From the NCBI GenBank assembly GCA_963844715.1, contig CAWJPJ010000006.1, forward strand, positions 1 to 64,000: a DNA stretch of 64,000 bases. The letters run 5' to 3'. Positions 6,001 to 48,939 of the stretch are shown one piece after another. Positions within the stretch are counted from its first letter, which is position 1. Each line of letters opens with the position of its first letter. A program made the translations under genes and the position numbers. This DNA comes from an uncultured Phycisphaerales bacterium. Lineage in GTDB: Bacteria > Planctomycetota > Phycisphaerae > Tepidisphaerales > Tepidisphaeraceae. Below the pieces are notes generated by a model that saw nothing but the letters and a program-made list of their open reading frames with translations, ran no database searches and had not been told where the DNA came from.

Positions 6001-9000
6001 TCATTTCCACGACCACCGGTACGGTCACCACTTTGAACAACGCGACCCTTGTGTCGGGCGTCACCACCAGCACCGATTACAACGCCGCGGGCCAGGTGGA
6101 ATCGACCACCGATGAATACGGCCAGGTCACCCAATACGTCTACGACGCCGACGGCAACCTCATCCAAACCCTCTATCCCGACAACACCAGCACGGAAACC
6201 ATCTACGATTCGGAAGGCAGAGCGATCCTGACCACCGATCGGCATGTCGTGGGCGACTCCGGGAATGCCACACTCACTGTTTATAACAGCCTGGGCCAGG
6301 TTGCCGAGACCCAGCGCGTCGCCGACGTCGCCGCAACCGTCGGCGCGGTATCCGGAATGACTGGTGTGGACCAGGTCACGGCGGTCAGCGGCGCCGGCCT
6401 CACTTCCACGGAAACCGGCGGGATTTACGTCTGGGCCGTGAACCCGACTTTCACCGGCTGGTTCTCGCAGACCAGCACCACCTATAACCCCGACGGCACG
6501 GTCGCCAGCACCACGGATGCGGACGGCCTGACCACGGACTACACCTATTATCCCAACGGCCAGCAGGAAAGCGTCACGCAGGTGAGCGTTCCGGTGTATG
6601 GCGCGACTGGCGGCGTCGAAAACCTCACCACGACCTACCAGTACAACTCCATGGGCCAGCAGAGCGACGTGACCGATCCCCTCGGCAACACGACCTCGTA
6701 TGAATATGATCCCCTCGGCCGGCTGATCTCCACCGGCTACGCCCCGGCGGTCAGCGTGGGGTCCACCTCCCTCGTCTCGACCACGACCAGCGAAACCTAC
6801 GATCCGGCGGGGAATAAGATCACCGAGACGGATCAGCTTGGCCGGGTCACGCAGTATAAGTATGACGATGCCGGCGATCTGATTGAAGTGGATCAGCCGG
6901 AGGTTTTGAACCCGGCCACCAATACGATGACCCCGCCGACGACGAGTTACGTCTACGATCAGTACGGCGACGAGTTGATGCAGATCGACGCCAACGAACA
7001 GGCGGCGTATCAGGCCTGGATCAGCGCCGGCAACACGCCGGAAAGCTTCGCCGGCCCGGCCACGCGGTATACCTACAATGCCCTCGGCCAGGAAACCTCG
7101 GAAACGCTCCCCGACGGCGAGCAGGAAACGACCCAGTACGATCAATTCGGGCGTGTTTCCTACTCCGTCGACTTCGACGGGAACGTGACGGCTTACACCT
7201 ACGACGACTCCGCCACCGGCGACGGCCGCGTGACGGGAGAATATTTCTTCCTCCCCGGTGTCGTGTTCGAAAGCAACAGCGGCGCCGTCATCACGACGAA
7301 CGCGTCGGAGAGCACAACTTACACTTACACCTTGCTCGGGCAGCAGGAGAGCGTGACCGACTCGAGTCCCACCGCGCCTATACCGCCGATGGCGCGACGA
7401 CTTACACATACGACGCCAGTGGTAACGTGATTGAGGAAAACACGCCGGAAGGGATTATCAATTATTATTACAATGCCCTGAACCAGCAGACGGACATGTG
7501 GACGGGGAACGTCACGTATGCCAATCGCGACACCGCCGAGACGTGGACGCAATATGGCTACGATTCCCTCGGCCGCCTGACCACAGTGACCCAAAGCCGC
7601 CTCAATGACCAAACCGTGAATCTGGTGACCACCTACGCCTACGACGCCAACGGCAACAAAGCCTACGAAATGGACCCTAATGGGGACATCACCACGTATG
7701 TATATGATGCACAGAATCGCCTCACCGGCGAGTTGGTCAAGAATGGCAGCACGACGCTTTATAGCGGCAGTTACATCCTCAACGCCGACGGCACCAGAAA
7801 GTCCGACTCCGAGACGGAGTTACAGCCCGGCGGGACCACGGCGACCCTATCTACGACATGGACGTATGACGCCCTGGACCGGCTGACGGGGGAGACGATC
7901 ACCAGCAGCTTGTCGGGCGGAAGCCAGACCGAGACCTGGTCGTACGATATGGACGGCAACCGGGTGAAGCAGGTCAAGGTCGCCGGCGGCGTGACCGACA
8001 CCACGACTTACACGTACAACGGCGACGACCAGATGACCCAACAGGTGGACAGCGCCACCGGGACCACCACGTTCGGGTATGACGCCAATGGCAGCCAGAC
8101 CAGCAGCACCAATGGCAGCGCCGTCACGACGTACGCGTACAATGTGCGCAACCAGCTCAGCAGCGTCACGACCGGCGGCGTGACGACCAGCTACCAATAT
8201 GATGACTCCGGTAACCGGGTGAGCGAGACGACCGGCGGCACGACGACTTACTACCTGATCGACGCCAACAACCCGACCGGCTATCCCAAGCCGATCGAGC
8301 AGTGGGTCAGCACGACGGGCAGCAGGTCCACCGCCACGTTGAGCATGAGCTACATCATCGGCGACCGGGTGCTGGCGCAGGCGAACAGCGGCGGCGCGGT
8401 GAGCTACCTGCTGGTCGATGGCCAGGACAACACGCGGGCGCTGGTCAACTCGTCGGGCGCGGTGACGGCGGTGTTCAACTATGACGCCTTCGGCAACCCC
8501 ATCGGCTCGTGGAGTCTGACCACCGCGCCGACGACGATCCTGTTCCAGCAGACGATGGTTGACCCGGCTTCGGGGTTGAACTTCGACGGGGGTCGTGAGG
8601 AAAAGATCGGGCAGGACAGCTTCATCGAAGCCGACCCGCCAGGTTACAGCAGCAACCAGAATCCGATCACGCTGAACTCGTACCTGCTGGACGGCGCGGA
8701 TTCGATCAACATGGTGGACTCGAGCGGACACGACTTTGGTCTAGGCGACATCTTATTGTCTGCCGGCATTGACTCCGAATTAGATTCAATTGAGTTCACC
8801 GGCTTCTCGGCGGCCTTCAAAACGGTACAAGGCGTTCAGGATGGAGAAAGCGCGAACCAGATTTTTGAAGGCTTCCTTATCGACCAAGCGCTCCAGGTCA
8901 CCGCGATCGTCGGCCTCGCTGCTGCCGGCAAATTGCTTGGCGGGCTAATAGATGGCAGTTTAGCAACAGCGCTTACTAACGAAGCTTCAAACCCTGCGGA

Positions 9001-9457
9001 GCAAGCGACAACGCTGGCGGAAAGTGAAATAGCAAACTCATTCTCCAACTTGGGAGCCGGGTTTGCCGAGAATAATGCGACCGCGCTGAATGAGTTCCCG
9101 GCTGGCTCAGCCTTCTCCGGTGTATACAATCCAGAGACAGGGCGCTTTCTGGCATACCCGAGCGGCGATACCTTGCTGGCTGATGGATCAGTTCCGCTGA
9201 ACAGGGTTGCGCGAAGAGCCGGTCACGGCATCGTCAATAACGTGTTCAGCCAACTGATCGGGGTAGACCCTACTTCAAATCTGGGCTTTACGTTATTCCG
9301 GGAAGACGATGGGACGTTCTCCGTCGAATGGTTTTCTGGCAGTGTCAATGGTCCGAACCCATCATTCGAAGGACCTATAGTGCCAGTGTCGATGCGGCCG
9401 CAGGTCATCAATGCGATTGAAAATGCAACCGGGCGCACTGTTACATCAGAGGAGTAA
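1..9457 (+). CDS. Giant Rhs/YD-repeat polymorphic toxin (5' end outside window; split by indels). SdrD-B-like and Ig-like domains, FN3 repeats, Rhs core, C-terminal Ntox43-like toxin.
   Basis: Consecutive ORFs 70-429, 446-1774, 1701-3467, 3401-5767, 5403-7430 and 7427-9457 form one domain series: DTDGNGQWDPGEP (SdrB-like), PTGLTAT...YYY.V.A (FN3), ISRTYDS, many YDxxGN repeats, cleavage-type motif NMVDSSGHD. The tip FSGVYNPETG...RRAGH...WFSGSVN resembles Ntox43 from memory. The paralog at 38.9 kb lacks the ~7375 frameshift. Confidence 0.88.
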
Positions 9458-9906
9458 TGGATATGGCTATTCAGGTCAGTGGTCTTCCCCTTCCGGCCGC
9501 TCTAGTGGCCGCATTGGAAAACGGCGTCTGGCAGACGCCTAGAACCCCGACTGTGTGGCAATCGCTCTTCCCGCACACAAAGGCGCGTCATGCTAAACTG
9601 TATAGTCTGAAAATGATCCAAAGCGAGAATGCTTCTTGGCCCAATGAGTCACGTCCTTTCTATGTTGGACGGGCGGACGAACATCGTCCGCCCGGTGACA
9701 TCGACCCTGCCAAGTCGCTTCTGATTGCCGATCTCGGTCCCGACAAGATGATTGCCTTGGATTACCGGGAGTCGTCGAGTCGCCCGTCAGTTCTGTATAT
9801 TACTGATGACCCGGATGGGTCAACTCGGTGGATTAGAGTTGCGCCCGACATCGAAACATTCATTCGCGCACTCGGCCTCGAAGCGGTGGGAACCCAAACG
9901 GGTTGA
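9457..9906 (+). CDS. SMI1/KNR4 (SUKH) family immunity protein
   Basis: Coupled to the toxin stop (TAATG). LPLP near the N-terminus and IALDYR...PSV...VAPDIETFI at the C-terminus fit SUKH. Confidence 0.8.
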   Translation: MDMAIQVSGLPLPAALVAALENGVWQTPRTPTVWQSLFPHTKARHAKLYSLKMIQSENASWPNESRPFYVGRADEHRPPGDIDPAKSLLIADLGPDKMIALDYRESSSRPSVLYITDDPDGSTRWIRVAPDIETFIRALGLEAVGTQTG

Positions 9907-9947
9907 ACTGCGCACCATCCTGCGTTAGGTCTTCTCCTCATCACCCT

Positions 9948-10288
9948 TCTATGAGCCGAGCCGTGTCAAGTGTGTTGACGTTGCCAGGGAGCGAGTCGGT
10001 CGTTTTAACCTTCTATTCAGAGCTTCCGCGTCCGGCATGGCGGAAGGGCAAGCCCTCCGTTTGTGCCGGGAATCGCGGGCCTATTCAACTGTACAATGCG
10101 GCAGGATGCGGAGGGCAAGCCCTCCGAATGCCCGCCAGCGCGACGCCCATTCTGTAGCGCGAGCTTTGCGAAGGGTTTTGCGCCTCCGATGGCTCAGGGA
10201 CGACAACGGGCTGTCGCTGATGACGACCGGCAAACTCCGCCAACGCAACATCATTGACCTTTCCTCTTTAGCTGCCTTCTTCCGATCA
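9948..10288 (-). ncRNA. Predicted bridge/seekRNA region of IS element A
   Basis: Minus strand carries GTCGTCCCT (10204-10196) and GCTACAG (10158-10152), matching both halves of target GTCGTCC-CT-GTAGC, plus ATAGAAG (10016-10010), matching the IS end and core. Transcript boundaries unknown. Confidence 0.75.
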
Positions 10289-11365
10289 TCACGCCGGCGT
10301 CGGCATTCCCGTCGCCGCCGCGTGGTCTTTCCAATCGGTTCCATCGCGCAACATGGCCCACAGCTTGACCAGCAGCCTCCGGGCCACGGCGACGATGGCA
10401 ATCTTCTTTCGCTTGTCGCTGCCGCGGCGGACGTTCTCATACACCTGCTTCATCCAGGTGTTGGCACGCACGCCCAGCCAGGCGACCTCCACCAGCAATC
10501 CCCGCAGCAGGCGGTTGCCGGCGTGGCTGATGTGGCCCTGGCGATCGCTTTCGCCGCTCTGCCAGCGCCGTGGTGTCAGGCCCGAATAGCTGCTGACCTG
10601 CCGGGCACTCTTGAAACGATGGGGATCGTCGATGATCGTGACCACCGCCTCGCTGAGGCGCGGGCCGACCCACGGGGCGGTCCTCAATTGCCTGACGCGC
10701 TGATCCGCCCTGGCCAGTTCCGCCAGCTTCAATTCCACCTGCCTGATCTGTTCTTCCAATCCCTCCAGCAGCTTGAGTTCCACATGCAACTGGAAACGCC
10801 ACAACTGTTCCGCCGGCGCTGACGCATCCTGCGCCGCCTTGCTCCATTCGACGATTCCCGCCGCCGCCCAGGCTTTGTCACCGGCGGGCAGCTTCAAACC
10901 CTGGCGCTCGAAGATGGCGCGGATGTTGTTCTTGATCATGGTTCTTCGGCCCACCAGGCCGTGGCGGTATTCGATAAACGACCGCCATTGCCTCACCTTC
11001 GTCGCCGGCATGTGGACCGTCGGCAGGCATCCCATCTCCGACATCTGCGCCAGCTTCAGGGCATCGGTGCGGTCGGTCTTGTTCTTCACCAGCTTCCACT
11101 GCCAACGCTGGTCGTTGGCGTTGGCGACCTGGATCGGGATGCCCAGTGTTTCGGCTAGGTCGTGCACCCATCCCGCCGCCGGTCCCGCCTCAATCACCAG
11201 GCGGTCGGGGGCGCGGTGGGTGAGCAAGTCGTGAATGGCAGCGGGATCAGTGGCCACCTTGCCGAACTCATGTTCGGCGGCTTTGCCTTCCATCGTGCCG
11301 TGATCGGTGATGTAATCCACAAAAACGCTCTTGTTCTTACCGAGATCGATGGCGAGAATCTTCAT
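10289..11365 (-). CDS. IS110 family DEDD transposase/recombinase
   Basis: MKILAIDLGK, VIEAG, KTDRTDA and SYSGLTP motifs; intact frame. Confidence 0.93.
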   Translation of the reverse strand: MKILAIDLGKNKSVFVDYITDHGTMEGKAAEHEFGKVATDPAAIHDLLTHRAPDRLVIEAGPAAGWVHDLAETLGIPIQVANANDQRWQWKLVKNKTDRTDALKLAQMSEMGCLPTVHMPATKVRQWRSFIEYRHGLVGRRTMIKNNIRAIFERQGLKLPAGDKAWAAAGIVEWSKAAQDASAPAEQLWRFQLHVELKLLEGLEEQIRQVELKLAELARADQRVRQLRTAPWVGPRLSEAVVTIIDDPHRFKSARQVSSYSGLTPRRWQSGESDRQGHISHAGNRLLRGLLVEVAWLGVRANTWMKQVYENVRRGSDKRKKIAIVAVARRLLVKLWAMLRDGTDWKDHAAATGMPTPA

Positions 11366-11490
11366 GGCCGAGTCCTTTCTCAAAGGATGACGTTTGAGCC
11401 GCCCCACGCGGGGTGAGCTCGTGTAATAACCGGAGATTTTATGCTCCGTGTTCAACGTCCCGAGGAAGGCTCGGCTTCATAGTTTCTGTA

Positions 11491-11560
11491 GCTCCGTCGC
11501 GTCGGCGTCGGCCCTCGCCCAGGAGCGCAGCGCCGGGGGCCGATGACGAGGCGATGGAGC
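11491..11560 (+). repeat. Conserved 27-bp-stem hairpin at the element left end (also 23569-23638 and 34075-34146)
   Basis: GCTCCGTCGCGTCGGCGTCGGCCCTCG pairs with CGGGGGCCGATGACGAGGCGATGGAGC; three copies in the window. Confidence 0.85.
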
Positions 11561-11714
11561 GCAAGGGCGATGATTCCCTGGTACCTCCAGAGCGGAGCGC
11601 TGAGGCTTCCGCTGAATCGGGATCGGCGGCTAAAGAAAAAACCGAGTGGTCCACCGCGCCCGCCGGCGTGCGCGTGTTGAGCGTTCAACCCACTTCTTTT
11701 TTAGCCGCGGTTGT

Positions 11715-12086
11715 TCAGGATGCTTTGGCCAGTGAGTTGATGAGACGAATGACGGCGCGCTGATCCTTGTGAGGCAGGCGCGTGACCTGGCGGAACTTCT
11801 TCCAGAGCCGGCGCACGTTGGGATCGTCCTGCTCGCTTCTTCCTTTAGTCGTCTTGCCGTTCTTCATGCCAAGCAGTTCATCGGCGCTGACGCCCAGGGC
11901 GTCGGCCAGTCTGATGATCGCGTCCACCGGGGGATAGTCGGCTTCGTTCTCGTAGTAGGTGATGGCGCGTTGCGTCGTGCCCAACGTCTGCGCGAGTTGG
12001 ACCTGGGTGATGTTGCGGGCCTTGCGCAGCTCGGCCAGCCGCCGACCAAAGCCGGTCTGTTCGGGTTGTCGGGCGATGCGTGGCAT
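11715..12086 (-). CDS. XRE-family HTH repressor (allele 1)
   Basis: RLAELRKARNITQVQLAQTLG...YYENE...LADALGVSADELLG; divergent from the primase gene. Start chosen by similarity to the other two XRE copies. Confidence 0.9.
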   Translation of the reverse strand: MPRIARQPEQTGFGRRLAELRKARNITQVQLAQTLGTTQRAITYYENEADYPPVDAIIRLADALGVSADELLGMKNGKTTKGRSEQDDPNVRRLWKKFRQVTRLPHKDQRAVIRLINSLAKAS

Positions 12087-12251
12087 GTCGTCGGTGATGG
12101 TAAACCGCATGGGAATCTTCTCCGCAAGAGGGGCGAGCGCTTGCAATATACGTTAACGCGGATACTCTCTTGCACGGATATTATCCATGAAAAATATTTT
12201 ACTTTCCAGCGGATATTGCTTGACCGGGTTCCACGGAAGGAAGGCAAAAGC

Positions 12252-15200
12252 ATGAAGCGCATCCCCGACGACGAGATTGAGCGGTTGAAGCGTGAGACGG
12301 ACCTGGCGGCGCTGGTGCGGGCGTCGGGGGTGGAGCTTGCGCCGCACGGGGCGGGCGGGGACCTGATCGGGCGTTGTCCGCTGCATGACGACCGCACGCC
12401 CTCCTTGGTGGTGACCGCATCGAAGGGGCTGTGGCACTGCCTGGGGGCGTGCGGCGTCGGGGGCAGCGCGATCGACTGGATCATGCGGACGCGCAAGACG
12501 GGGTTCCGCTACGCCATCGAAATCCTTCGGGAGATTAACGGCGCGGGCGCTGTCGCCGGCGGTGAGCCTGGTCGAACCGGGGGGACGGCGCCCGCGCCTT
12601 CTTCTTTGCCCAGGAGATTGCCCGCGCCGATCGCGTTCGACGCCGACGATCACCAGCTCATGCTGGAAGTGATCGAGTATTACCACAAGTGCTTGAAGCA
12701 GACGCCGGCGGCGCTGGCGTACCTGCAAAAGCGCGGGATCGGCAGCAGCGAAGCCGTCGAGCATTTTAGGATCGGCTTCGCGGACCGCACCCTGGGCCTG
12801 CGTCTTCCCAACAAGCAGGCGCAAGGCGGGAGCGGAGATCCGCGAGCGGTTGGAAAAGCTCGGCCTGTACCGGGACACCGGCCGCGAGCACTTCAACGGC
12901 TGCGTGGTGTTCCCGATCATCGACCCTCAAAGCGGCCGCGTGACGGAAATGTACGGGCGGAAGATCGGCCCGCAGTTCCGGGGCCTGCCGATTCATCTGT
13001 ACCTGCGCGGGGAGCACAAGGGGGTGTGGAACGAAAGCGCCCTGGCGGCGTGCGAGGAAGTGATCTTGTGCGAGTCGATCATCGACGCCTTGACGTTCTG
13101 GTGCGCGGGGATGCGCAACGTGACGTGCAGCTACGGGGTGCACGGCTTCACCGCCGATCACCTGGCCGCGTTCAAGCGGCACGGGATCAAGCGGGTTCTG
13201 ATCGCGTATGACCGTGACGACGCCGGCGAGAACGCCGCGGCGAAACTCTGGCCGCGACTGACGGCCGAGGGGATCGAGTGCTTCGGGGTGCAGTTCCCCA
13301 AGGGGATGGACGCCAACGAATACGCGCTGAAGCTCCTGCCGGCGAGCAAGAGTCTGGACCTGGTGGTGAGGCAAGCGCTGTGGCTCGGTAATCCCGGCGC
13401 GCCGGGATCGCGGCCGTCGCCGGCGATGACGGCGGAGATACAAGAGGCGGCTAAAGAAAAAAGTGAAGGGGCAGCGCCGGCGTTGTCGTCGTCATCGGAT
13501 GCGCTCGAGCCTTTGCCTTCCGATCCTCCAACATCCGCGCCGCCGGCGTCGTCACTTGATGCAACGAACGAAATGACCGAAGAAGAAACAACGGGTACGC
13601 CGGCGTCACACGATCACACGCCGGCGTGCTCACTCTCTGTTGATCCCGCGCCGTTGCCGGCGTTTGTTCCAGCCGCGGCCGTTCCCGCGCGCCGCCGGCG
13701 TTCCCGCCCCTGCCTTCCTCTTTAGCTGCTGATCCTGGCTTGCTCGATGCGCCGGAGTCTGAGCCGCCGGCGGCATCGCCGTTGCCGCGTGCTTCCGCGC
13801 CGCCGGAGGTGCCGGCGGAGGTCAAGGAACAGGAAATCATCATCACGCTGGAAGGCCGGCGTTACCGCATCCGGGGCATGAGCAAGAACCTGGGCTTTGA
13901 CGCGCTGAAGGTGAACGTGCTGGCCAGTTGCGGGGAACTGATGCACGTGGACACATTGGACCTGTACGCTCACCGCTCGCGCAAGCAGTTCGCGGCGGAC
14001 GCGGCGCGGGAGCTTCGGCTGGAGGAAACCTTGCTGCGCCACGACCTGGGCAAGGTGCTGCTCAAGCTGGAGGAGTTGCAGGAGAAGCAGATCGCCGAGG
14101 CCACCAAGCCGAAGGAAAAGACGGTGAAGATCACCGATGCGCAGGCGCGACGCGGCGCTGGAGCTTCTTAAATCGCCCGATCTGCTGGACCGCATCCTGG
14201 CCGACTTTGAGCGCTGCGGCGTGGTGGGCGAAGCCACCAACAAGCTGACGGGGTATCTGGCCGCCACGAGCCGCAAGCTGGAGCAACCGCTGGCGGTCGT
14301 GCTGCAATCCAGCAGCGCCGCCGGCAAATCCTCCCTGATGGAGGCGGTGCTGGCGATGCTGCCGCCGGAGGAAGTGACCAAGTTCAGCGCCATGACCGGG
14401 CAATCGCTGTTCTACATGCAGGGGTCGGACCTGCGCCACAAGGTGCTGGCGATTGTCGAGGAGGAAGGGGCGGAGCGCGCCAGCTACGCATTGAAGCTGC
14501 TGCAATCCGAGGGCGAGTTGACCATCGCCTCCACCGGTAAGGACCCGCAGACGGGCCGGCTCGTCACCCAGGAGTACCGTGTCGAGGGTCCGGTGATGAT
14601 CTTCCTGACGACGACGGCGGCGGAGATTGACGAGGAGTTATTAAACCGCTGCCTGGTGCTGAGCGTGAGCGAGGATCGCGAGCAGACGCGGGCCATTCAC
14701 ATCATGCAGCGCAAGCGCCAGACCTTGGCCGGCCTTCTGGAACAGCGGGAGCGCGCGGCGGTGCTCGCGGTGCACCGGGACGCGCAGCGGCTTTTGTATC
14801 CGGTGCTGGTGGCCAATCCCTTCGCGGACCGGCTGACGTTCCTGGACAGCCGCACGCGCAGCCGGCGGGACCATGTGAAATACCTGACGCTCATTCGCAC
14901 GGTCGCGCTCCTGCACCAGCACCAGCGGGAGCACAAGACGGTGGAGCATCCGCCGGCGTCGGGGCAGTTCGTGGAGTACATCGAGGTCACGCCGGGGGAC
15001 ATCGCCATCGCCAATCGGCTGACGCATGAAGTCCTGGGGCGCTCACTCGATGAGCTGGCCCCGCAGACCCGGCGCTTGTTGGTCATGCTCGATCAGCACG
15101 TCATGGGCGAGTGCCAGCGGCGGAAGATGCCGCGGAGTGATTACCGCTTCACGCGGCGGCAGGTGCGCACGTTCGCCGGCTGGACGGACTTCGTGGTGCG

Positions 15201-15649
15201 GACGCACCTGCAAAAGCTGGTGGACCTGGAGTACGTGCTGGTGCATCGCGGCGGGCGCGGTCAGTCGTTCGTGTACGAGCTTCTTTACGGCGGGGAAGGG
15301 ACTGACGGCAAACCGTTCGCCCTGGGCCTGATCGATCCCGACAGCCTGGGAAACTCCGCTTACGTTGAAAAGTTCGAGCATCAAAACAGCCGGTTCGAGG
15401 GGGGTTCGAGCCTCCATAGTGCCCCCATTGAGCCGGGTTCGTGCGCACGAAAGCGCCGAATCTCCCGGCAATCACGGGCCGGAATCCACGTCCAGCGCGG
15501 AAGCGGTCAAAATCGCGCCTCGGGAGACGCTTTCGGACGGCGCGCATCGTACCGATACATCAACGTACCCACCTTCTTCTTTAGCCGCCTCGACAAGCTC
15601 GGGACAGGCCGCCGATTCCAACGGCCAGGAGGTGGATCATGCCGCGTAG
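12252..15649 (+). CDS. CHC2 zinc finger-Toprim primase fused to AAA+/P-loop ATPase (frameshifted in assembly)
   Basis: [10 protein letters not shown]...WHCLGAC (CHC2); LCESIID and AYDRDDAG (Toprim); Pro/Ala linker; QSSSAAGKS (Walker A), LAIVEEE (Walker B), DEELLNR. Breaks differ from copy 2. Confidence 0.82.
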
Positions 15650-16917
15650 AGGCTGGCATCCCGGGCCAAGGGCGATCATCGGCGATCCCACCGACCCGCG
15701 CGGCATGGCCGCGCTGCGCGACCAATACCTGGACCACATGGCGGTGCTCAACTTCGCGCCCGACACCATCTACGTGCGGCGGGTCTACCTCAACTTCTTC
15801 GTCAAGTGGTGCCAGGAGCGCTCGGTCGTGCGCCCGGCGAAGTCACCAAGCCGATTGTGGACCGCTACCAGCGCTGGATGTATCAGTTCCGTTCTCCCAA
15901 GGGCAAGCCGCTGAGCTTCACCAGTCAGAACGGACGGCTGGCGGCGGTCAAGGCGTGGTTCCGCTGGCTGACGCGCTTCAACCATATCCTCTCCAACCCG
16001 GCATCCGATGTGGACCTTCCGCGCGTGGACCGCAAGCTGCCGCGTCACGTGCTGACGGCCAGCGAGGTCGATCAAATCCTCAACGGCACGGAGATCAAGG
16101 ACCTGCGCGGCTGAGGGACCGGGCCTTTTTGGAGACGCTCTACTCGACGGGATTGCGGCGGCGGGAGATGGTGAACCTGAGCATCTATGACGTGGACATG
16201 GAGCGCGGGACGGTGCTGGTGCGCAAGGGGAAGAACCGCAAGGACCGGATCGTTCCCATCGGCCAGCGCGCCATCCTGTGGCTGAGCAAGTACCTGTCCG
16301 AAGCGCGGCCGCAGTTGGCCCCCAACCGGGAGGAAGCCTTGTTCGTGACGCAGATCGGCGATCCGTTCACGGCCAACAGCGCCACGCAGCTTGCCCGTCA
16401 GTACGTGGAGAAAGCCAAGCTCCCCAGCGGCAAGCGCGGGGCGTGTCACCTGTTCCGCCACACGATGGCGACCTTGATGCTGGAAGGGGGCGCGGACGTG
16501 CGCTACGTGCAGGCGATGCTCGGCCACGCGGACATCAGCTCGACGCAGATTTACACGCACGTCGGCATCCGCACGCTCCAGCAGGTGCACGCGATCACGC
16601 ATCCGGCGGGCCTGGTCAAACGTCCGTCCAGCATCGGCGTTGCGGGCAATGTGTTGCCCGCTTACGGCGCCAACGAGGGATCGGACCTGCCGGACGTGCT
16701 GGTGGAAGATCCCGCGTGCCGGCGCGGGTTGAGGGAGGATCAACCGCTGCCGCGACCTGGGCGCGCGCCGCCGGTGAACGGGAACGCCGCCGATCTGGCT
16801 GACTTCCTGGCTCGTGATGATGACGATGACACCCTCGACGAGCTCGGGGCAGGCGACACCGGGGAAGCGGCCGGCGGCGCGGAAGTCGCGGCTTTTGGGC
16901 GCGCTGATGACGGCTGA
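15639..16917 (+). CDS. XerC/D-like tyrosine recombinase (frameshifted in assembly)
   Basis: RDRAFLETLYSTGLRRRE, VRKGK, HLFRH, LGHADISSTQIYTHV; start overlaps the primase stop. Confidence 0.88.
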
Positions 16918-17638: not shown

Positions 17639-17722
17639 TAGTATTCCATGAGCAAACTTCTCCTGGGTTAAATTCTCCGGGAGTGTCGAGACCCGTTGGA
17701 CTTTTTTTGCGGGAGGTTTGCC

Positions 17723-37039: not shown

Positions 37040-40000
37040 GTGGCTAGTTGCCGACGCGCCTTTAACCCCGACGGCACCGTACAGAGCGCGACGGATGCGG
37101 ATGGCCTGACCACCGCTTACACCTATTATCCCAACGGCCAGCAGGAAACCGTGACGCAAGAATCTGTGTCGGTTTACAATGCAACCACGAGTACGACCAG
37201 CGACTTCAACAATTACGGCGTTCCCGCCGGGCTCTTGATCAGCGAGTCCAGCCTCGGGCCCACCGGCCAGATGGTGCAGCAGTCGTACAACTCCTACTAT
37301 GGCAATGATGTCGCCGCCTCCAGCCCCAGCTACGTGGCGGCCATTCCTTCCGGCAGCTTCGACGTGGCCGGCGAACTGGCCGGCACCACGGACGTCAGCG
37401 GCGTCACCCACTCTTACAATTATGACGCCGATGGGAATCAGATCAGCGACAGCTATGTCTGGCACGATCCTTCCGCTCCCAACGACCCCTCGCAGGACGA
37501 AATCGTCACCACCACAACCGTCTACGACGCCGCCGGGCGGGTCATTTCCACGACCACCGGTACGGTCACCACTTTGAACAACGCGACCCTTGTGTCGGGC
37601 GTCACCACCAGCACCGATTACAACGCCGCGGGCCAGGTGGAATCGACCACCGATGAATACGGCCAGGTCACCCAATACGTCTACGACGCCGACGGCAACC
37701 TCATCCAAACCCTCTATCCCGACAACACCAGCACGGAAACCATCTACGATTCGGAAGGCAGAGCGATCCTGACCACCGATCGGCATGTCGTGGGCGACTC
37801 CGGGAATGCCACACTCACTGTTTATAACAGCCTGGGCCAGGTTGCCGAGACCCAGCGCGTCGCCGACGTCGCCGCAACCGTCGGCGCGGTATCCGGAATG
37901 ACTGGTGTGGACCAGGTCACGGCGGTCAGCGGCGCCGGCCTCACTTCCACGGAAACCGGCGGGATTTACGTCTGGGCCGTGAACCCGACTTTCACCGGCT
38001 GGTTCTCGCAGACCAGCACCACCTATAACCCCGACGGCACGGTCGCCAGCACCACGGATGCGGACGGCCTGACCACGGACTACACCTATTATCCCAACGG
38101 CCAGCAGGAAAGCGTCACGCAGGTGAGCGTTCCGGTGTATGGCGCGACTGGCGGCGTCGAAAACCTCACCACGACCTACCAGTACAACTCCATGGGCCAG
38201 CAGAGCGACGTGACCGATCCCCTCGGCAACACGACCTCGTATGAATATGATCCCCTCGGCCGGCTGATCTCCACCGGCTACGCCCCGGCGGTCAGCGTGG
38301 GGTCCACCTCCCTCGTCTCGACCACGACCAGCGAAACCTACGATCCGGCGGGGAATAAGATCACCGAGACGGATCAGCTTGGCCGGGTCACGCAGTATAA
38401 GTATGACGATGCCGGCGATCTGATTGAAGTGGATCAGCCGGAGGTTTTGAACCCGGCCACCAATACGATGACCCCGCCGACGACGAGTTACGTCTACGAT
38501 CAGTACGGCGACGAGTTGATGCAGATCGACGCCAACGAACAGGCGGCGTATCAGGCCTGGATCAGCGCCGGCAACACGCCGGAAAGCTTCGCCGGCCCGG
38601 CCACGCGGTATACCTACAATGCCCTCGGCCAGGAAACCTCGGAAACGCTCCCCGACGGCGAGCAGGAAACGACCCAGTACGATCAATTCGGGCGTGTTTC
38701 CTACTCCGTCGACTTCGACGGGAACGTGACGGCTTACACCTACGACGACTCCGCCACCGGCGACGGCCGCGTGACGGGAGAATATTTCTTCCTCCCCGGT
38801 GTCGTGTTCGAAAGCAACAGCGGCGCCGTCATCACGACGAACGCGTCGGAGAGCACAACTTACACTTACACCTTGCTCGGGCAGCAGGAGAGCGTGACCG
38901 ACTCGAGTCCCACCGGCGCCTATACCGCCGATGGCGCGACGACTTACACATACGACGCCAGTGGTAACGTGATTGAGGAAAACACGCCGGAAGGGATTAT
39001 CAATTATTATTACAATGCCCTGAACCAGCAGACGGACATGTGGACGGGGAACGTCACGTATGCCAATCGCGACACCGCCGAGACGTGGACGCAATATGGC
39101 TACGATTCCCTCGGCCGCCTGACCACAGTGACCCAAAGCCGCCTCAATGACCAAACCGTGAATCTGGTGACCACCTACGCCTACGACGCCAACGGCAACA
39201 AAGCCTACGAAATGGACCCTAATGGGGACATCACCACGTATGTATATGATGCACAGAATCGCCTCACCGGCGAGTTGGTCAAGAATGGCAGCACGACGCT
39301 TTATAGCGTGACATACACGCTGAATAAGGACGGCACCCGCGCCAGCGCAACGGAGATGAACGGGTCGACTTCGATCAGCACCAGTTGGACCTACGACAAC
39401 CTCGACCGCCTGCTCGCCGAAACGATCGTCAGCGGCGGCACTTCAACCGATACCTATACCTACGATCTGGTCGGCAACATCGTCACCAAGAACCACGTCG
39501 TCGACGGCTCCGGGGCCGAAACAACGACGTATCACTACAACGGTGACAATGAACTTTACCAGCAGGTGGACAGCGTCACCGGTACGACCAACTTCACCTA
39601 CGACGCGAACGGAGACCAGACCGGCAGCACAGCGAGCACCACGATCACGACCTACACGTATGACCTCGAGAACAAGATGATCTCCGAAGCCGTCAACGGC
39701 GCGACGCAGGCGAGCTACATTTATGACGAGGCAGGCAACAGGGTTCAGGAGACCGTCGGCAGCACGACCAGTTACTACCTGACCGACGACGATAATCCGA
39801 CGGGTTATGCCGAGCCGTTGGAGGTCAGAACCTACACCGGCTCAACCCCATCCCTTGGTGCCGCGTCGCTGTCGATGACGTATCTGATTGGGGACAACGT
39901 TTTCGGGCAGGTGAACTCTTCCGGGACGGCCAGTTACTTCGTCATCGACGGCCACGGCAGCACCCGCGCTCTGGTCAGTTCTACAGGCTCGGTAACCGCC

Positions 40001-40956
40001 ACATTCAACTACTTTGCCTATGGCAACCCTTTGGGCTCCTGGAGCCTGAACACCGCCGGCACGATCTTTCTCTATGGCGGCGACGCCGTGTACGACCCCG
40101 CCAGCGGGCTGTACATGAACGGCGACGGCACGCGGGATCGGTCTGGGTTTGAGTTTATTCAGAGGGATACGAGCCTTGGGGAAAACGCGGATCCGCTTAG
40201 CCTCCACACGTATTTGTACGCGGATGCGGACTCGATCAACGGGTTTGATCCAAGCGGGCACGATGATCTCGATGATATCGAGAATTTTATTGGCAACTTT
40301 GCCATCGCGGCTTTCCAGTCTTCGACACCGTACATGCTATTGCATTACACCTATGAGAGTAATTTCATGCCGAATTGGAATAATGCCGTCGGCGATGTCA
40401 TGCATGGATTTGCTAGCATTGGGTTATCATTTCCCAGCGGGTCCGCGTCGGCGATCGCCGCTCAGATCTATCAAGGGTTGCAGAACTTTAACTATTTGCG
40501 CCAAATATCGCTTCGGTCAGTGTTTCGGGGGGTAAGCTTGCTTCCTTTACTATGAATGGACTACTGATGCAATACGGGATGTCGCGATTTAATGCTGCTA
40601 ATCCCACCGTGCAGCTGGTGCAGGGACCCGGCCAATACGAGCTCACAGGCGTGACTCTTGGGAGTCATATGCTCGTAGGCGTCCGTCGGTGGAGAGTGCT
40701 GATAATTCGGCAGTCGCCGCCGGTGCTTTCCGTCGAAACGGAGGCATATGAGCAGAACAGTAGCTATGCAAATGCGGCCGGCCGTTGGGCTCTCGGGCAA
40801 TCGGCACAATACGCGGTCTGGGACAACTATTTGAACAATATCGGGGCGGCTTGGGTTACAAAGGGTGCCACATTAACGCCTGCAAGGCATATCCCTGAAG
40901 TAGACGTCGGCGCTGTAAATCCGTGGAGGGCGCAGTTGCCGCTTACGCTACAGTAG
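37040..40956 (+). CDS. Long orphan Rhs cassette 5 (frameshift ~40530)
   Basis: 37193-39308 duplicates main gene 5652-7766, followed by a different distal core, DPSGHD and an unassigned tip. Confidence 0.85.
37193..39308 (+). repeat. 2.1-kb direct repeat of 5652-7766
   Basis: Identical by eye except one extra G (CACCGGCGCC vs CACCGCGCC). Confidence 0.93.
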
Positions 40957-40968
40957 AACTGAGGAACG

Positions 40969-41580
40969 TTGCGAACCTTTTTGATCATAGTTGCGAGCGT
41001 ACTATTGTCATTGTTAATTACCTTCGCAATACTTATTGCGTTGCCTCGCGCCATCTTGAATCATGAGGAGGATATGCTCGACCGTATGGCGAAGTGGCGG
41101 GATCAGGCAGTCGCAAGCCCGCACAGTCAGGAAGCGCTGAATGAGTTGTTGGGCGAGTTGCATTCGAGTGATGATATTGAGAGGGGGAACGCGGCTGCAT
41201 ACCTCGGCCAGGTTGGCAGTCGCGCACCTGATATCGCCACCTCCCTGGTTATGCCTCTCGTTCAGACTTTACAAAACGACGATCCGGGGGTCTCAAAATC
41301 GGCCGCCGAGGCGCTCGGTGAAATCGGTCCGGCGGCAATTCAAGCCGTGCCCGCCCTAATCGCATCTGTCGTGAAATACCCTAGTTCGAGCCCGGGGTAT
41401 GAATCGGCCCAGGCTTTGGGCGAAATTGCTGATCCGGGCGATTTGAAAGTGCATCAAGTACTAAATAACGCGGCTAGTGGAGGAGACCGATTAATGCAGT
41501 CGGACGCCCAGCAGGCGATTGACGCGCTCAAATCGCGCCGGCAGTCGGCCGTGACCCGGACTTCGCCGAAACCGGTGTAG
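40969..41580 (+). CDS. HEAT-repeat protein with N-terminal TM; putative immunity of cassette 5
   Basis: AAEALGEIGPAAIQAVPAL and SAQALGEI repeats; hydrophobic N-terminus. Confidence 0.75.
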   Translation: MRTFLIIVASVLLSLLITFAILIALPRAILNHEEDMLDRMAKWRDQAVASPHSQEALNELLGELHSSDDIERGNAAAYLGQVGSRAPDIATSLVMPLVQTLQNDDPGVSKSAAEALGEIGPAAIQAVPALIASVVKYPSSSPGYESAQALGEIADPGDLKVHQVLNNAASGGDRLMQSDAQQAIDALKSRRQSAVTRTSPKPV

Positions 41581-41688: not shown

Positions 41689-41837
41689 GCCTGTCTGATG
41701 AATCCAAAATCCTGAAATAGCGACGGATCATGGCGAGCTTGGCCATGGCCTGAAAGTTCACCGCCAGTTTCTCGTAACGCGTGCCCAGGCGGCGATTCTC
41801 CTTCATCCAATTCACGCAACGCTCCACCACGTTCCGC
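41687..41837 (-). pseudogene. IS5-family transposase 3' remnant
   Basis: Minus strand RNVVERCVNWMKENRRLGTRYEKLAVNFQAMAKLA...SDRP*. Confidence 0.8.
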
Positions 41838-43526
41838 GTCAGTTACATCCTCAACGCCGACGGCACCAGAAAGTCCGACGCCGAGACCGAGTTACAGCCC
41901 GGCGGGACCACGGCGACCCTATCTACGGCATGGACGTATGACGCCCTGGACCGGCTGACGGGCGAGGCGATCACCAGCAGCTTGTCGGGTGGAAGCCAGA
42001 CCGAGACCTGGTCGTACGATATGGACGGCAACCGGGTGAAGCAGGTCAAGGTCGCCGGCGGCGTGACCGACACCACGACTTACACGTACAACGGCGACGA
42101 CCAGATGACCCAACAGGTGGACAGCGCCACCGGGACCACCACGTTCGGGTATGACGCCAATGGCAGTCAGACGACCACGACGGTCGGCGGCACGGTCACC
42201 CAGACCGATTCCTACGACGTGCGGAACCGGCTCCAAAAGGTCGTCAACAGTTCAGGCACGACGACCTACGTTTATGACGACGCCGGAGACCGGGTTCAGG
42301 AGACGACCGGCAGCACGACGACCTACTACCTGATCGACGACAACAACCCGACCGGTTACGCCAAGCCGATTGAAGTGCGCGTCGGGTCGGCGACAGGCAC
42401 GCCCACCACCACGTACATCCTGGGCCTGGACGTGATCGGGCAGGCGAACAGCAGCGGCGCGGTCTCGTACCTGGTCATCGACGGCCGGGACGATACGCGG
42501 GCGCTGGTCAATTCCAGCGGAGCGGTGACCGCGACGTTCAACTACGATGCCTTCGGCAACCCGATCGGGTTCACCGCCGCGACCGCGCCGACGGTCTTCC
42601 TGTTCCAGCAGATGATGTTTGACGCGCCGTCGGGGACGAACTTCACCGAGAGCCGCCAGGAACCGCTGGGCGCGCCCTACTGGCTCGAAGCGGATTCGCC
42701 GGGATACAGCAACAATGACGATCCCCTGACGCTTAACGGCTACCTGTTTGATGGCGTGAATCCCATCAGCAACATCGATCCGAGTGGGCATGACTTCTCA
42801 TTAGGGGATATCCTGGTAACGGCCGGTATCAGCGCCACACTTATGGGCTCGCTATCGGGCGGTTTGGCTGCTGTAAGCGGCAGGAATGTAATTTACAACG
42901 CGGTTGTAGGCGCTGGCGGCGGTTTGGCTCTAGCTTCTGCGTTCTTTGATGGGCAATTGCCGGAGGTTGGAGCGAACGCGCTCGTGGTATCAGCCATGAC
43001 CTCAATTTTGCTGGCGACCCTTGATGCCGTCACGAAAGGTCGGAGTTACGTACAAAATCACTTGACCACCTACGAGAGTGTAGCGGTGGAAACCTTCTCA
43101 TGGGCTTCTATCTCAGAAGCGTGGTTTCCAGCAAAGAGCTATACGTCGTTAGATGGTAATCAGGACGAAGGGGTCGGAAAGCTCCTTCAGGATATAACTC
43201 TTGCGTTCGGACAAGGTGTAGCGGAAGGTGTGGCGTTGCTTGGTGATGTGTCATTGCTCGCCAGCGGCGCAATAACTCAATCGACAGCCAAGATTGAGCT
43301 GACGGATGCGTTTAAAACGATCGCGGGAAATCTTCTGTCGTCGGGCGTTTCTTTGGCAGTCGATACACTGTTCATGTCATCATTTGGAGGTGAGGTTCCC
43401 TCCGATGTTAAATCCGACGTCATTACGGATTTGAAGGGCGGCTTATTTTCCAATACGCTGTCGGCGGGAATCAACGACATTTGCAGCGAACTTGCCGACC
43501 TGATTGTTGATAAAGTCGCAGGCTAA
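41836..43526 (+). CDS. Orphan Rhs cassette 6, hydrophobic helical tip
   Basis: Begins VSYILNADG; mosaic of the other cores; DPSGHDFSLGDIL. Confidence 0.82.
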
Positions 43527-43542
43527 CTGTGGTGGCAACCAT

Positions 43543-44091
43543 ATGCGGGCCGTCAATCGCGATACCTTGGAAGTAGGGGGAGTTTTTGTTTGGGTTGAGA
43601 CTTGGAAACTTCGACAAGCGATAGCTGGTCCCTTTTACGTTTCAAAAGTAGCTAAACGCGTCATCTGGTGGGCGTTGGGCTTCCCGCTAGCACTTATGGC
43701 AGCGCTTGGCTTAGGGACGATTTGCGGACGGCGCGGGCAGTTTAGCCCTTTATCCGACGTTTTCTATTTGCTCGGAATCTGGCTTGTCGTAGGCGGGATT
43801 ACCGGCCTCGCATTTGAGTTTGCCGCGCTTAGCATTCAGATATACAAAAATCAGGTCTATGTAATTCAGTCATATCGCGTATTTTGGCGTTTATTATTTA
43901 GCCATAAGACGCTAGTTCGGGTCACGCCTGTCGCCCCGCAGGTTACACGCATGGAGTTTTACTCACAGGGACGGGCGCGCCCGAAGATGGTTCGGGCCTG
44001 CCCTTTTGAAGCGGCCAAGGTCGTCGAATGGTTCCAAAACGCCGGAATCAATGTTGAACTGGAGAGCGGCCCCAACCCACTTCATCTTTAG
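43543..44091 (+). CDS. Putative membrane immunity protein of cassette 6
   Basis: Two hydrophobic segments; follows the toxin. Confidence 0.6.
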   Translation: MRAVNRDTLEVGGVFVWVETWKLRQAIAGPFYVSKVAKRVIWWALGFPLALMAALGLGTICGRRGQFSPLSDVFYLLGIWLVVGGITGLAFEFAALSIQIYKNQVYVIQSYRVFWRLLFSHKTLVRVTPVAPQVTRMEFYSQGRARPKMVRACPFEAAKVVEWFQNAGINVELESGPNPLHL

Positions 44092-44602
44092 CCGCTGTAG
44101 CCGCGGCCATATTCACGCGGCAGGCAACAGAGTTCAGGAGACCGTCGGCAGCACGACCAGCTACTACCTGACGGATGACAACAACCCGACGGGTTATGCC
44201 GAGCCGTTGGAAGTCAGGACCTACACCGGCTCAACGCCATCCCTTGGCGCCGCATCGTTGTCGATGACGTATCTAATCGGGGACAACGTCTTCGGGCAGG
44301 TCAACTCTTCCGGGACGGCCAGTTACTTCGTCATCGACGGCCATGGAAGCACCCGCGCCCTGGTAAGTTCAACTGGCTCGGTAACCGCCACATTCAACTA
44401 CTTCGCCTACGGTAACCCATTGGGTTCCTGGGGCCTGAACACCGCCGGCACGATCTTCCTCTTTGGCGGCGACGCCGTGTACGACTGTCAGCGGCGCGCA
44501 AAACCGGCCACTGAGGGCGCGCGCCAAAACCGGCCATTTTGAAGCACAGGAGATTCGATCATTACCGTTGGTTCCCGGTTCTAACCGGGAGACGACGGCA
44601 CG

Positions 44603-47714: not shown

Positions 47715-48608
47715 GAGCCTCTAACAAAAATGCGAATGGAGCCTGTTCCAACAGATCATTGCCTCACCCACGGTCATGAACGCGGCGTGGATGTCGGGCC
47801 GTTTTTCGTAACGGACTCGCAGTCGGCGATTCTGATGCAACCAACTCAGCGTACGCTCCACCGGCCAGCGGGTTTTGCCAAGACCACTTCCGTGCGGGCG
47901 GTTGCGTCGGGCCAGCAACGGGCGGCTGCCACGCTGACGCAACGCCTTTCGGTGCGGTTCGGAGTGATACGCCCGGTCTCCCTGCACCACCTCGAACCGC
48001 CAGCGCGGCCGGCCCGGTTTGCCCGAGACCTTTGGAATCGCATCGATCAGCGGCAGCAGTTGCGTGATGTCGTGGCGGTTGGCCGCCGTCAGGAGGGCAA
48101 CCATCGGCGTGCCGTTGCCATCGGTCAATACATGGTGCTTGGAACCGTTTTTCCTGCGATCTACCGGGCTCGGACCCGTTTTTTTCCCCCGTGCACGGCC
48201 CGCACGGAAGCAGAATCCACCAAGGCCCGCGACCAGTCGATGGCATTCGACCGCCGCAATCGATTCAGCAATAGTCCGTGCAGCTTCGTCCAAACCCCAC
48301 GATGGTTCCAATCGCGCAGTCGACGCCAGCAACTCATGCCGCTGCCGCATCCCATCTCCTGGGGAAGGTATTCCCACGGAATGCCGGTTTTGAGCACGAA
48401 CAGAATACCCGACAACGCCGCGCGATCGTCCAGCGGCGGCCGGCCGCGCTTTCCTGGACCACTGCGGTGCTTGGGAAGCAGGGGTCGGATCAACTCCCAA
48501 AGCTCGTCGGTCACCAACGGCTTGGTCATAAAGCCCTCCATGGCTAAGACCAAGCCGTATTGTCCGATCAACCATAAACATGGGGAAGTGCATTTTTGTT
48601 AGAGGCTC
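47715..48608 (-). mobile_element. IS5 family element (transposase 47721-48529, likely programmed frameshift)
   Basis: Perfect IR GAGCCTCTAACAAAAATGC; TSD TAA; A7 run joining the two ORFs; GDRAY and RWPVERT motifs. Confidence 0.94.
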
Positions 48609-48939
48609 TAAATATCGAAGCGACAGGTTGGTTTAAAGCGACGAGGGTGCCCAAAAAAGCCGGTTCATATCAATTGCATTATGATCTATCAGTTAAGATA
48701 AGTAAGTTCTATAATTTCTATGCTACCAATTTATGGCATATATTACCGTCGTTTGTCGCCCCGATCGATTATGCATCTGCGTGGACGTTGGAAAACGATG
48801 GTGTGGCCCAGCCGTACAAGGTAAACGTTGACTTCAAAATGAATTCTTAGAACGATTCCAAGGCTGAGGCAGGAGTCCGCCTATTGGCCTGCACAGCGGA
48901 GGCAATTAGGATGCTGCTGCAGTTCCTCCCGATAAAGGC

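Follow-up and report, generated by a model that had tools for sequence, protein, structure and literature searches.

We analyzed a 64,000-nucleotide stretch of DNA from an uncultured Phycisphaerales bacterium (referred to in the following as the window), which represents the first 64 kb of a 1.26-Mb contig (C6:1-64000) in a genome assembly of 4.55 Mb and 8 contigs (completeness 85%, contamination 4%). Public sequencing runs containing the window sequence come from peat, permafrost, bog, and soil metagenomes. The window is an Rhs/YD-repeat polymorphic toxin locus with displaced toxin tips, and between these tips lie copies of a DNA element with genes for an XRE-type repressor, a primase-helicase, and a tyrosine recombinase. 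This element and its relation to the toxin tips are the subject of the present study; the coordinates of all features are compiled in Table 1.

Self-comparison of the window, Pfam and tblastn searches, and alignment yielded eight Rhs-core segments, all of them on the plus strand; these are one long gene and seven 5'-truncated cassettes, as the original prediction (made from the sequence alone) had proposed. Pfam RHS_repeat domains were detected in the open reading frames (ORFs) at 5403..7430, 7427..9457, 19504..20301, 21393..23231, 29630..31102, 37040..40555, and 41781..43526; the Rhs fragment at 34621..36102 was matched by tblastn only. In an alignment of seven Rhs fragments, five (those starting at 7427, 21393, 34621, 37040, and 41781) are conserved through the core-end sequence ...DPSGHD and unrelated beyond it, and the fragments starting at 19504 and 29630 lose their frame upstream of this core end. 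Judged from the core-end alignment, the variable toxin tip of the long Rhs gene starts past position ~8900. A segment of cassette 6 (37193-39308) is 99.95% identical to 5652-7766 in the long gene. In the Pfam search, the attached tip alone possesses a SUKH/SMI1_KNR4 gene, and the small ORFs downstream of the displaced tips had no family match.

The two full copies of the element are 96% alike over 5.4 kb, with identities of 90-99% between 12219-17640 and 24286-29802, and chance is therefore excluded as the source of this resemblance. Further matches connect 17323-17605 with 19236-19518 and 29475-29772 (~80%), and 23564-24247 with 34070-34793 (81% identity). Two full and two partial copies had been predicted with coordinates that the self-comparison reproduced almost exactly, except that the last 407 nt of the predicted right ends turned out to be a separate leader (see below). 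Both full copies encode, according to Pfam, an HTH_3 (XRE) protein on the minus strand, followed on the plus strand by CHC2 zinc finger, DnaG_N, Toprim, and Phage_integrase domains, with a long stretch between the latter two that lacks a match in the Pfam copy searched. Over 12219-17640, the copies differ by 14 single-base insertions or deletions (indels), and each appears frameshifted. We compared the window with contigs from four public short-read runs (assembled contigs, not reads) and found 1-nt indels relative to the window in contigs of three or four runs at positions 24971, 25462, 25590, 26883, 27867, and 28932. Applying these six indels to copy 2 opens a primase-helicase frame of 1187 codons (24259-27819) and a recombinase frame of 444 codons (27758-29089); the frameshifts are therefore most likely assembly errors, and the genes of the element are probably intact in nature. 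The frame changes within the long Rhs gene (e.g., at 7427-7430) may be errors of the same kind.

Homologues of the primase-helicase are single large proteins in which CHC2, DnaG_N, and Toprim domains are joined to a P-loop domain labelled PF27228 in the database; the primase domains of the predicted "primase-ATPase" were thus recovered, and its ATPase belongs to the same polypeptide. The homologue encoded by one of the relatives, genome G041, is uninterrupted over 1056 codons. By sequence, the N-terminal half of the primase-helicase resembles DnaG primases of known structure (best E = 5e-22). For the C-terminal 635 residues of the G041 protein, a predicted model (mean predicted local distance difference test score, pLDDT, 74; predicted template modeling score, pTM, 0.67) retrieved in Foldseek, among the matches listed, only MCM replicative helicases (best E = 9e-10), at template modeling scores of ~0.3-0.36 that are modest for a multi-domain chain. 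One large protein is thus predicted to fuse a DnaG-type primase to an MCM-like AAA+ helicase, and a replicative function of the element is plausible.

The recombinase matches Pfam Phage_integrase with E = 8e-41 and passes the cut-off of the NCBIfam XerC subfamily model NF002331 (406.9 versus 371 bits); the catalytic R, K, HxxR, H, and Y residues are all present (motifs HLFRH and IYTH). A housekeeping XerC/XerD-dif system, or an element that exploits one and has no recombinase gene itself, was considered and discarded: the recombinase gene sits inside a multi-copy unit, and the other Xer-like genes of the window's genome are only 25-35% identical to it. In the 40 nearest genomes (a count that includes the unpublished genome G004), recombinase matches reach only 29-40% identity, mostly two per genome and presumably these organisms' own XerC and XerD; the element therefore lies outside the core genome of the lineage. 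Pfam detected neither a relaxase nor a coupling protein in the element copies of the window. Relatives at loci L032, L040, and L057 (TrwC, TrwB) and L087 (RlxS) carry relaxase or coupling genes inside the unit. Despite the 91-99% identity of the element copies, their XRE repressors (11715-12146, 23775-24200, and 34320-34721, all on the minus strand) share only 38-40% of residues, and at the DNA level the repressor regions of copy 2 and the partial copy agree to 81%; elements seem to swap this region with one another, in the manner of phage immunity regions.

The ends of the element are sharp and possess GCRTCGG-type motifs. Its left end starts with CTCCCGTCGTCC followed by CTGTAGCTCC (23552). 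All three left ends lie downstream of an ORF that follows a toxin tip, in agreement with the predicted position behind an immunity gene; in copy 2, the end is found 37-49 nt past the stop at 23515, and in copy 1 and the partial copy at 34070 an insertion sequence (IS), IS110a, sits exactly between the upstream ORF and the left end, splitting CTCCCGTCGTCC from CTGTAGCTCC. The insertion point of IS110a (window 9946-11485 and 32530-34069) falls between CCGTCGTCC and CTGTAGC. A further IS110a copy, accompanied by 558 nt of the left part of copy 1, was detected at C6:535159-536962, away from any Rhs gene. On the other side, the sequence common to copies 1 and 2 stops at ...GGACTCAACTA(T). Right ends fused to truncated Rhs cores had been predicted; this holds for 29802 and 19523, which run directly into YD-repeat coding sequence, and fails for copy 1, whose right end at 17640 abuts a second element, IS110b.

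An inner boundary lies at 17233/29395. An element remnant beside the second Rhs locus of the genome (C7:950324-950505) ends there, the IS110b target TTTTACCT^TGCC is situated there, and short-read contigs stop there, with contigs of three runs joining 17233 to 23555; the element proper (23552-29395) was therefore split from a 407-nt leader (29396-29802). The leaders (17234-17640, 29396-29802, 19113-19523) are located outside the unit that repeats in the population. The last 20 nt of the leader hold a GAAA..GCGTCGG-type motif (GAAA..GCGTCGGG) that recurs near the right junction in many phyla. IS110b, found at C7:950599-952078, C7:955114-956319, and window 17641-19109, has TTTTAYCT^TGCC at the right boundary as its usual target. 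Since two different IS110-family elements occupy the two ends, the element ends appear to act as specific IS targets. Rfam had no match on 23300-30100, and the DNA fold of the leader was unremarkable (z = -1.65). Comparison of the leader with the left-end region gave scores of 41-49 against a shuffle maximum of 40, which is not significant, and the pattern GCRTCGGRNTS was seen five times in the window versus 3.2 expected, likewise not significant alone. No significant right-end remnants were detected upstream of other orphan fragments; a short resemblance upstream of 21415 (GGATGTAACTAG versus GGACTCAACTAT, 9/15 by eye) may be due to chance and was dismissed. At locus L029 (13813-14036) and in G041 (L089+L090; 22058-22287), an open frame extends from inside the leader in frame into the displaced Rhs fragment. 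The leader-derived N-terminus at L029 resembles a signal or membrane segment; the frame is lost in other copies, and its presence may be fortuitous.

The element has numerous relatives. Among 8000 scored proteins, 6255 are homologues of the primase-helicase with E <= 0.001, the best 120 of which are 55-100% identical to the copy in the window; many of the homologues listed come from contigs only 2-5 kb long, in line with what a repetitive element would produce. We confirmed 584 element stretches in species-representative genomes (one per species) and found 579 on metagenome contigs. From these, 76 genome loci and 79 metagenome loci were analyzed. The genome loci span Planctomycetota, Myxococcota, Acidobacteriota, Actinomycetota (Acidimicrobiia), Bacteroidia, Riflebacteria, Patescibacteria, and Erysipelotrichia as well as Alpha-, Beta-, and Gammaproteobacteria and "Deltaproteobacteria," among them isolates of Massilia, Acidiphilium, and Microbulbifer. 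Throughout these relatives, the gene order XRE (minus strand)/primase-helicase/recombinase is kept. Judged by these sequences, the element is a member of a very widespread family of what are predicted to be small integrative, self-replicating DNA elements, some relatives of which would be conjugatively mobilizable.

The association of the element with Rhs tips is real and is seen repeatedly across phyla. A core-end motif was found 0.3-3.5 kb downstream of the recombinase gene in 21 of the 42 copies with enough flanking sequence and 0.4-4.5 kb upstream in 15/37; the opposite strand had none in either case (0/42 and 0/37). Over whole genome loci, the strand of the element carries the motif in 37/76 cases and the other strand in 1/76, the corresponding values for metagenome loci being 32/79 and 0/79; the entire 4.55-Mb genome to which the window belongs contains three matches. 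The enrichment near Rhs toxin tips that the original prediction had suggested searching for is hence present, and the similar primase and XerC modules that it placed beside rhs genes in other bacteria were found across phyla. The regular expression used covers two conserved motifs, and its first version missed the window's own core end, DPASGL...DPSGHD; the counts are lower bounds because atypical ends such as this one escape it. A hidden Markov model built from the Rhs core fragments of the window offered no gain in sensitivity over tblastn and was replaced by Pfam and the core-end motif. With two Rhs proteins of the window's genome as queries, tblastn matched 24/76 loci, and Pfam RHS_repeat, RHS, or YD-shell ORFs were present upstream on the same strand at 17 loci, to which NCBIfam adds L088. 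Other cargo beside the element comprises Ntox10, Ntox21, EndoU, and HNH tips, a weak WHH match, PT-HINT modules, VapC and MazF toxin-antitoxin genes, and TrwC or RlxS relaxases, with TrwB next to TrwC at L040.

Two or three tandem copies of the element are found at no fewer than 9/76 loci (>=9), with periods of ~7.6-7.8 kb where measured (7560 nt in Acidiphilium iwatense, ~7.8 kb in a metagenome-assembled genome (MAG) of the Multivoradales) and of 15 kb in the relaxase-carrying form. G041 is laid out as an Rhs gene with tip A and its immunity gene, a 12.55-kb unit (ORF of unknown function, TrwB, TrwC, XRE, primase-helicase, recombinase), tip B and the ORFs behind it, another unit with 99.5% identity to the first, and tip C; tip B starts with exactly the core-end sequence of the main gene, LDYFGARYF.... 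At two loci, which belong to separate phyla, direct repeats of 3091 bp (L029, 98.4%) and 2040 bp (L035, 96.6%) enclose the element, each consisting of an Rhs 3' part, a toxin (and immunity gene), and the sequence up to the left end of the element. A circle bearing such a segment would leave this pattern behind after a single crossover. Nine contigs (4/76 genome loci and 5/79 metagenome loci), with units of 6.3-10.9 kb, have identical repeats of 39-129 nt at their termini, a signature of circular or tandem assembly. An Rhs core end is present on six of these nine circular-looking contigs; in L065 and L079, translation through the contig ends shows it to be followed by a toxin and a candidate immunity gene. 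Another, L057, combines the end of a HINT module with a weak WHH-nuclease match, a SUKH immunity gene, and a TrwC relaxase, and the cargo of the other two (2/9) was not recognized. Against other loci, the circular-looking contigs gave only ~71-82% matches, with no close integrated relative among these loci on which an attachment point could be mapped. Within the window, the two cores that precede copies 1 and 2 (7629-8692 of the long Rhs gene and the core of cassette 3) are each other's closest relatives at 94.5% identity, any other pair with either of them reaching 83% at most (<=83%), which modestly favors a unit in which core fragment, tip, and immunity gene are joined to the element. These arrangements support a recurring unit that would be composed of the element plus one cassette of pre-toxin end, toxin, and immunity gene. 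A head-to-tail joint of 17233 to 23555 in contigs of three runs, missing from the assembly, points toward a repeating or circular unit as well, with the limits given below.

We consider it somewhat more probable than its negation (about 55%) that the element belongs to a family of small integrative, self-replicating elements that build such arrays by integrating, as a circle of element plus one toxin-tip cassette, at a resident rhs gene. The mobile unit would be a circle of ~6-11 kb with the repressor, primase-helicase, and recombinase genes and one cassette, made up of the last part of the Rhs core (or another pre-toxin module), the toxin domain, and the immunity gene. It would enter by a single crossover at the core segment common to the cassette and the resident rhs gene, so that the resident gene reads into the incoming tip, the element comes to lie directly after the new immunity gene, and the old tip is displaced downstream, right behind the recombinase end of the element. 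The array seen in the window would result from several such rounds, after which elements were lost or decayed and IS elements inserted at their ends. Joining could be achieved by the recombinase of the element or by homologous recombination of the host, both being possible; episomal replication, the crossover mechanism, the part played by the recombinase, and the gain of a working new toxin are the steps that we infer. With a chance that we place slightly short of even, the phylum-spanning family may be the circular episome that was proposed in 2009 as the intermediate of rhs C-terminal displacement: self-replicating and sometimes mobilizable, it would plug a tip onto a resident Rhs or HINT-type gene, and orphan arrays would be the fossil record of its visits.

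Several observations weigh against this reading. No Rhs sequence was found by tblastn or motif at 13/42 loci of at least 10 kb (>=10 kb), of which at least L029 and L057 hold toxin genes according to Pfam. A common att-type core was not found at the two element ends. The point of core truncation differs by lineage, lying several hundred codons before the core end in the window and L029 and at the core-end motif itself in L025, L030, L035, and G041, and static gene order cannot distinguish a cargo carried upstream from one carried downstream. Circular-looking contigs can come from collapsed tandem arrays, and the evidence on circles from the sequencing runs consists of assembled contigs rather than reads. 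The head-to-tail joint from 17233 to 23555, which is absent from the assembly, was seen in contigs of three runs at a depth of ~7 with just 30 letters on one side, and repeats or other organisms can give such joints. Moreover, this joint lacks a cassette, so that the element alone may be what circularizes; on one chromosome, the copies at L056 and L063 are 97-99% alike over 4722 nt and have different cassettes on both sides. Over short timescales, then, the cassette-free element appears to be what repeats, and the element alone may also move. The predicted mobile unit of element, Rhs tip, and immunity gene consequently finds backing in tandem arrays, circular-looking contigs, and flanking tip repeats, and is at odds with the cassette-free joint and the L056/L063 pair. 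As to its predicted replication or circularization, the DnaG-type primase and MCM-like fold make replication plausible, and tandem arrays could generate the same circle signals. Other contig joints (28689 or 16515 to 23920 with 40 letters between; 11705 to 23554) were not interpretable and were not used. Over the element, contig depth sums to about twice the value of its left neighbor, which fits two collapsed copies and gives no evidence of amplification; the little or no contig cover of 19672-21005 and 29677-31000 in the four runs carries no meaning.

The best surviving alternative, which we regard as unlikely, is an ordinary integrative element that targets rhs arrays and whose recombinase inserts just the core element (XRE, primase-helicase, recombinase) at a favored site between an immunity gene and the next orphan core fragment; the cassettes would not be cargo, and the arrays would have arisen independently by classical displacement. 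It accommodates the joint between the element's own ends, the different neighbors of the L056 and L063 copies, and short-read contigs that stop at 23547-23584 and 29389-29395, i.e., at the boundaries of the element itself. Discrete conserved sites are likewise marked by the two end-specific IS110-family elements and by the recurrence of the GAAA..GCGTCGGG motif near the right junction across phyla. Insertion alone, however, generates no same-tip duplications such as the 2-3 kb repeats that flank the element in two phyla, nor does it provide for the Rhs core ends on six of the nine circular-looking contigs, with toxin and candidate immunity gene following in L065 and L079. Furthermore, we found no candidate empty target site or shared core, and the start of the downstream core fragment varies between lineages.

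We hold it to be quite improbable that the locus works as an integron-like platform whose recombinase captures and excises tip cassettes at the leader end, the array growing as at attI. The recombinase gene reads toward the cassette, a conserved motif marks the junction, the protein is weakly similar to integron integrases, and XerC/D genes adjoin polyimmunity loci in the material on these loci given by Zhang et al. (2012; PMC3482391). The recombinase nevertheless scores far below the cut-offs of the integron-integrase models (TIGR02249, 107.8 versus 265 bits; NF011946, 78.6 versus 435 bits), and the cassettes of the array are separated by whole or partial elements rather than by short sites. 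In addition, the 12-nt left-end sequence occurs in the window only at two element left ends and at no other cassette end (a weak test, with one motif in one window), and the leader has neither a significant fold nor an Rfam match. The integron analogy drawn in the original prediction was not upheld; integrase cut-offs were missed, and the 3' ends of cassettes yielded no site in common.

An assembly artefact or simple segmental duplication within a repeat-rich, long-read MAG region, as the 1-nt indel errors, the 85% completeness and 4% contamination, and the wealth of IS elements might suggest, is largely refuted already and has next to no probability left: independent short-read contigs of four runs reproduce the element with its left neighbor, one contig of 1731 nt spans 21854-23584 with zero differences, and the same order recurs beside Rhs tips in isolates and MAGs of many phyla.

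P4-like elements, islands resembling phage-inducible chromosomal islands (PICI-like), and tycheposons also combine a repressor and a fused primase-helicase with a tyrosine integrase located at one end; they are small and have tandem or excised forms. In comparison, the element studied here has a DnaG-type primase and an MCM-like helicase by prediction and neighbors Rhs tips instead of tRNA genes, and no phage-interference genes were seen in it. With integrons it shares a tyrosine recombinase beside an array of promoter-less cassettes and a putative circular cassette intermediate; unlike them, it fails the integrase cut-offs, has no attC-like site that we could find, and is itself a mobile, multi-copy entity with a replication protein. 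We class it as a small integrative, putatively replicative element with a specialized link to polymorphic-toxin tips; independent comparative evidence partly supports the original interpretation.

The Bacteroidales possess rAID-1, a recombinase-associated acquired-defence island. As in such islands and polyimmunity loci, an Xer-like tyrosine recombinase is found here beside arrays of immunity genes and toxin remnants. Polyimmunity islands, as far as described in the part of Zhang et al. (2012) concerned with them, are collections of immunity genes; here, in contrast, each cassette retains its pre-toxin end and toxin, and the recombinase is carried, along with a repressor and a primase-helicase, on a discrete multi-copy unit. 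Xer-dependent systems adjoin polyimmunity loci in Xenorhabdus and Photorhabdus as well, according to the section of a preprint devoted to them (bioRxiv 10.64898/2026.07.13.738213). Gamma-Mobile-Trio (GMT) elements are outlined in another preprint (bioRxiv 10.1101/2023.03.28.534373) as tyrosine-recombinase mobile elements carrying antibacterial toxins and defence cargo. Our recombinase reaches only 21.5 bits against the cut-off of 340 of the GmtY model (NF040693), the partner proteins differ from those in that outline, and the family is not confined to Gammaproteobacteria. Integrase-like genes recur beside the Rhs loci of bee-gut Snodgrassella and Gilliamella, and in the passage concerned Steele et al. 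(2017; PMC5727410) suggested that these integrases aid the transfer and capture of Rhs sequences; unlike our data, this passage describes no primase-helicase, element boundaries, or unit.

The closest precedent is the rhs C-terminal displacement model with an episomal circular intermediate (Jackson et al., 2009; PMC2935791), in the passages on which no integrase was known to accompany Rhs and no candidate for the circle was named. As in these passages, an intact rhs gene with attached tip and immunity gene precedes displaced units of core fragment, tip, and immunity gene in the same orientation, and the model requires a single crossover of a circle bearing a core fragment and tip. In contrast to that account, the tips are separated here by a defined element that possesses replication and recombination genes, and circular-looking contigs combine the element with a tip. 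In searches of the main texts of freely accessible full-text papers, we found no published account of a primase-helicase/Xer-like element carrying Rhs tips. One hit, a chloroplast paper (PMC4487195) that mentions rhs genes and primases, concerns different regions and algae and is unrelated.

How Rhs and other polymorphic toxins gain new tips and yet keep old ones is an open question. If our favored reading of a tip-carrying circle is true, an abundant element with a single tip and immunity gene would supply the stable circular carrier that the 2009 model needed, and the order of orphan arrays would be explained. It would also provide a main route for the spread of interbacterial weapons and antidotes across phyla within soil and peat communities, and the question would be directly testable in culturable hosts (Massilia, Acidiphilium, Microbulbifer). 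The predicted fusion of a DnaG primase with an MCM-like helicase is a bacterial replication module of interest in its own right.

Table 1. Features of the Rhs locus and of the element copies in the window.
Feature	Position	Strand	Basis or remark
Long Rhs/YD-repeat toxin gene, cut by contig start	1..9457	+	Pfam SdrD_B, fn3, DUF6531, RHS_repeat
Reading frames of the long Rhs gene	446..1774, 1701..3467, 3401..5767, 5403..7430, 7427..9457	+	Several frames
Immunity gene of attached tip, SUKH/SMI1_KNR4	9457..9906	+	PF09346, 29.2 bits versus cut-off 25.4
IS110a (IS110-family) at left end of element copy 1	9946..11485	-	Pfam Transposase_20, DEDD_Tnp_IS110
Element copy 1	11486..17233	+	Self-comparison, Pfam; assembly frames broken
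Copy 1, XRE repressor	11715-12146	-	
Copy 1, primase-helicase	~12250-15700	+	
Copy 1, tyrosine recombinase	~15705-16917	+	
Leader of copy 1 (407 nt), between element and following cassette	17234..17640	+	Terminates in GCATCGG motif and AACTA
IS110b (second, different IS110-family element)	17641..19109	+	Pfam
Leader of diverged element (414 nt), fused to next Rhs fragment	19110..19523	+	~80% identity with both other leaders
Cassette 2: Rhs core fragment, ORF 19504..20301	19524..20991	+	Pfam RHS_repeat; frame lost near core end
Cassette 2, small downstream ORFs	20337..20735, 20605..20991	+	
Cassette 3: Rhs core fragment and toxin tip 21393..23231; candidate immunity ORF 23228..23515	21415..23515	+	
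Element copy 2	23552..29395	+	Pfam; open frames after six short-read indels
Copy 2, XRE	23775-24200	-	
Copy 2, primase-helicase	24319-27819	+	Open frame 24259-27819
Copy 2, tyrosine recombinase	27877-29089	+	Open frame 27758-29089
Leader of copy 2	29396..29802	+	
Cassette 4: Rhs core fragment and tip 29630..31102, 31030..31788; ORF 31785..32246	29803..32246	+	Frame change
IS110a, second copy, again at an element left end	32530..34069	-	97.9% repeat
Partial element: left end and XRE gene (34320-34721, -), fused to next Rhs fragment	34070..34793	+	Pfam HTH_3
Cassette 5: Rhs core fragment and tip 34621..36102; ORF 36347..37030	34800..37030	+	
Cassette 6: long Rhs fragment (1171 aa); ORF 40552..40956; HEAT-repeat ORF 40969..41580	37040..41580	+	
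Cassette 7: Rhs core fragment and tip 41781..43526; ORF 43504..44091	41836..44091	+	
Cassette 8: short Rhs fragment, directly upstream of IS21-family element 44603-47012	44115..44542	+	91% identical to 39726-40096

The second Rhs locus of the genome (C7:940000-950500; L001) contains Rhs pieces, an Rhs gene of 1597 amino acids (aa), and two small ORFs; after these, only the last 182 nt of the element are left, followed by tandem IS110 copies and an IS21 remnant. Outside the array of the window, a 237-nt piece of the long Rhs gene (5565-5951) is repeated at 50926-51311 with 94% identity, and more weakly over a further 150 nt, next to an rve-type IS (49588-50877). Beyond the IS-rich end of the array lie genes for an HlyD-type adaptor and an AcrB-type resistance-nodulation-division (RND) pump (51880-56396, plus strand) and a MazF/PemK toxin gene (57826-58296, minus strand). 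A 1344-aa ORF at 59255-63289 (minus strand) possesses five tandem repeat units of 306 nt (60409-61825, 62-71% alike) and weak Glyco_hydro2_C5 and DUF6941 matches; it probably encodes a repetitive surface protein.

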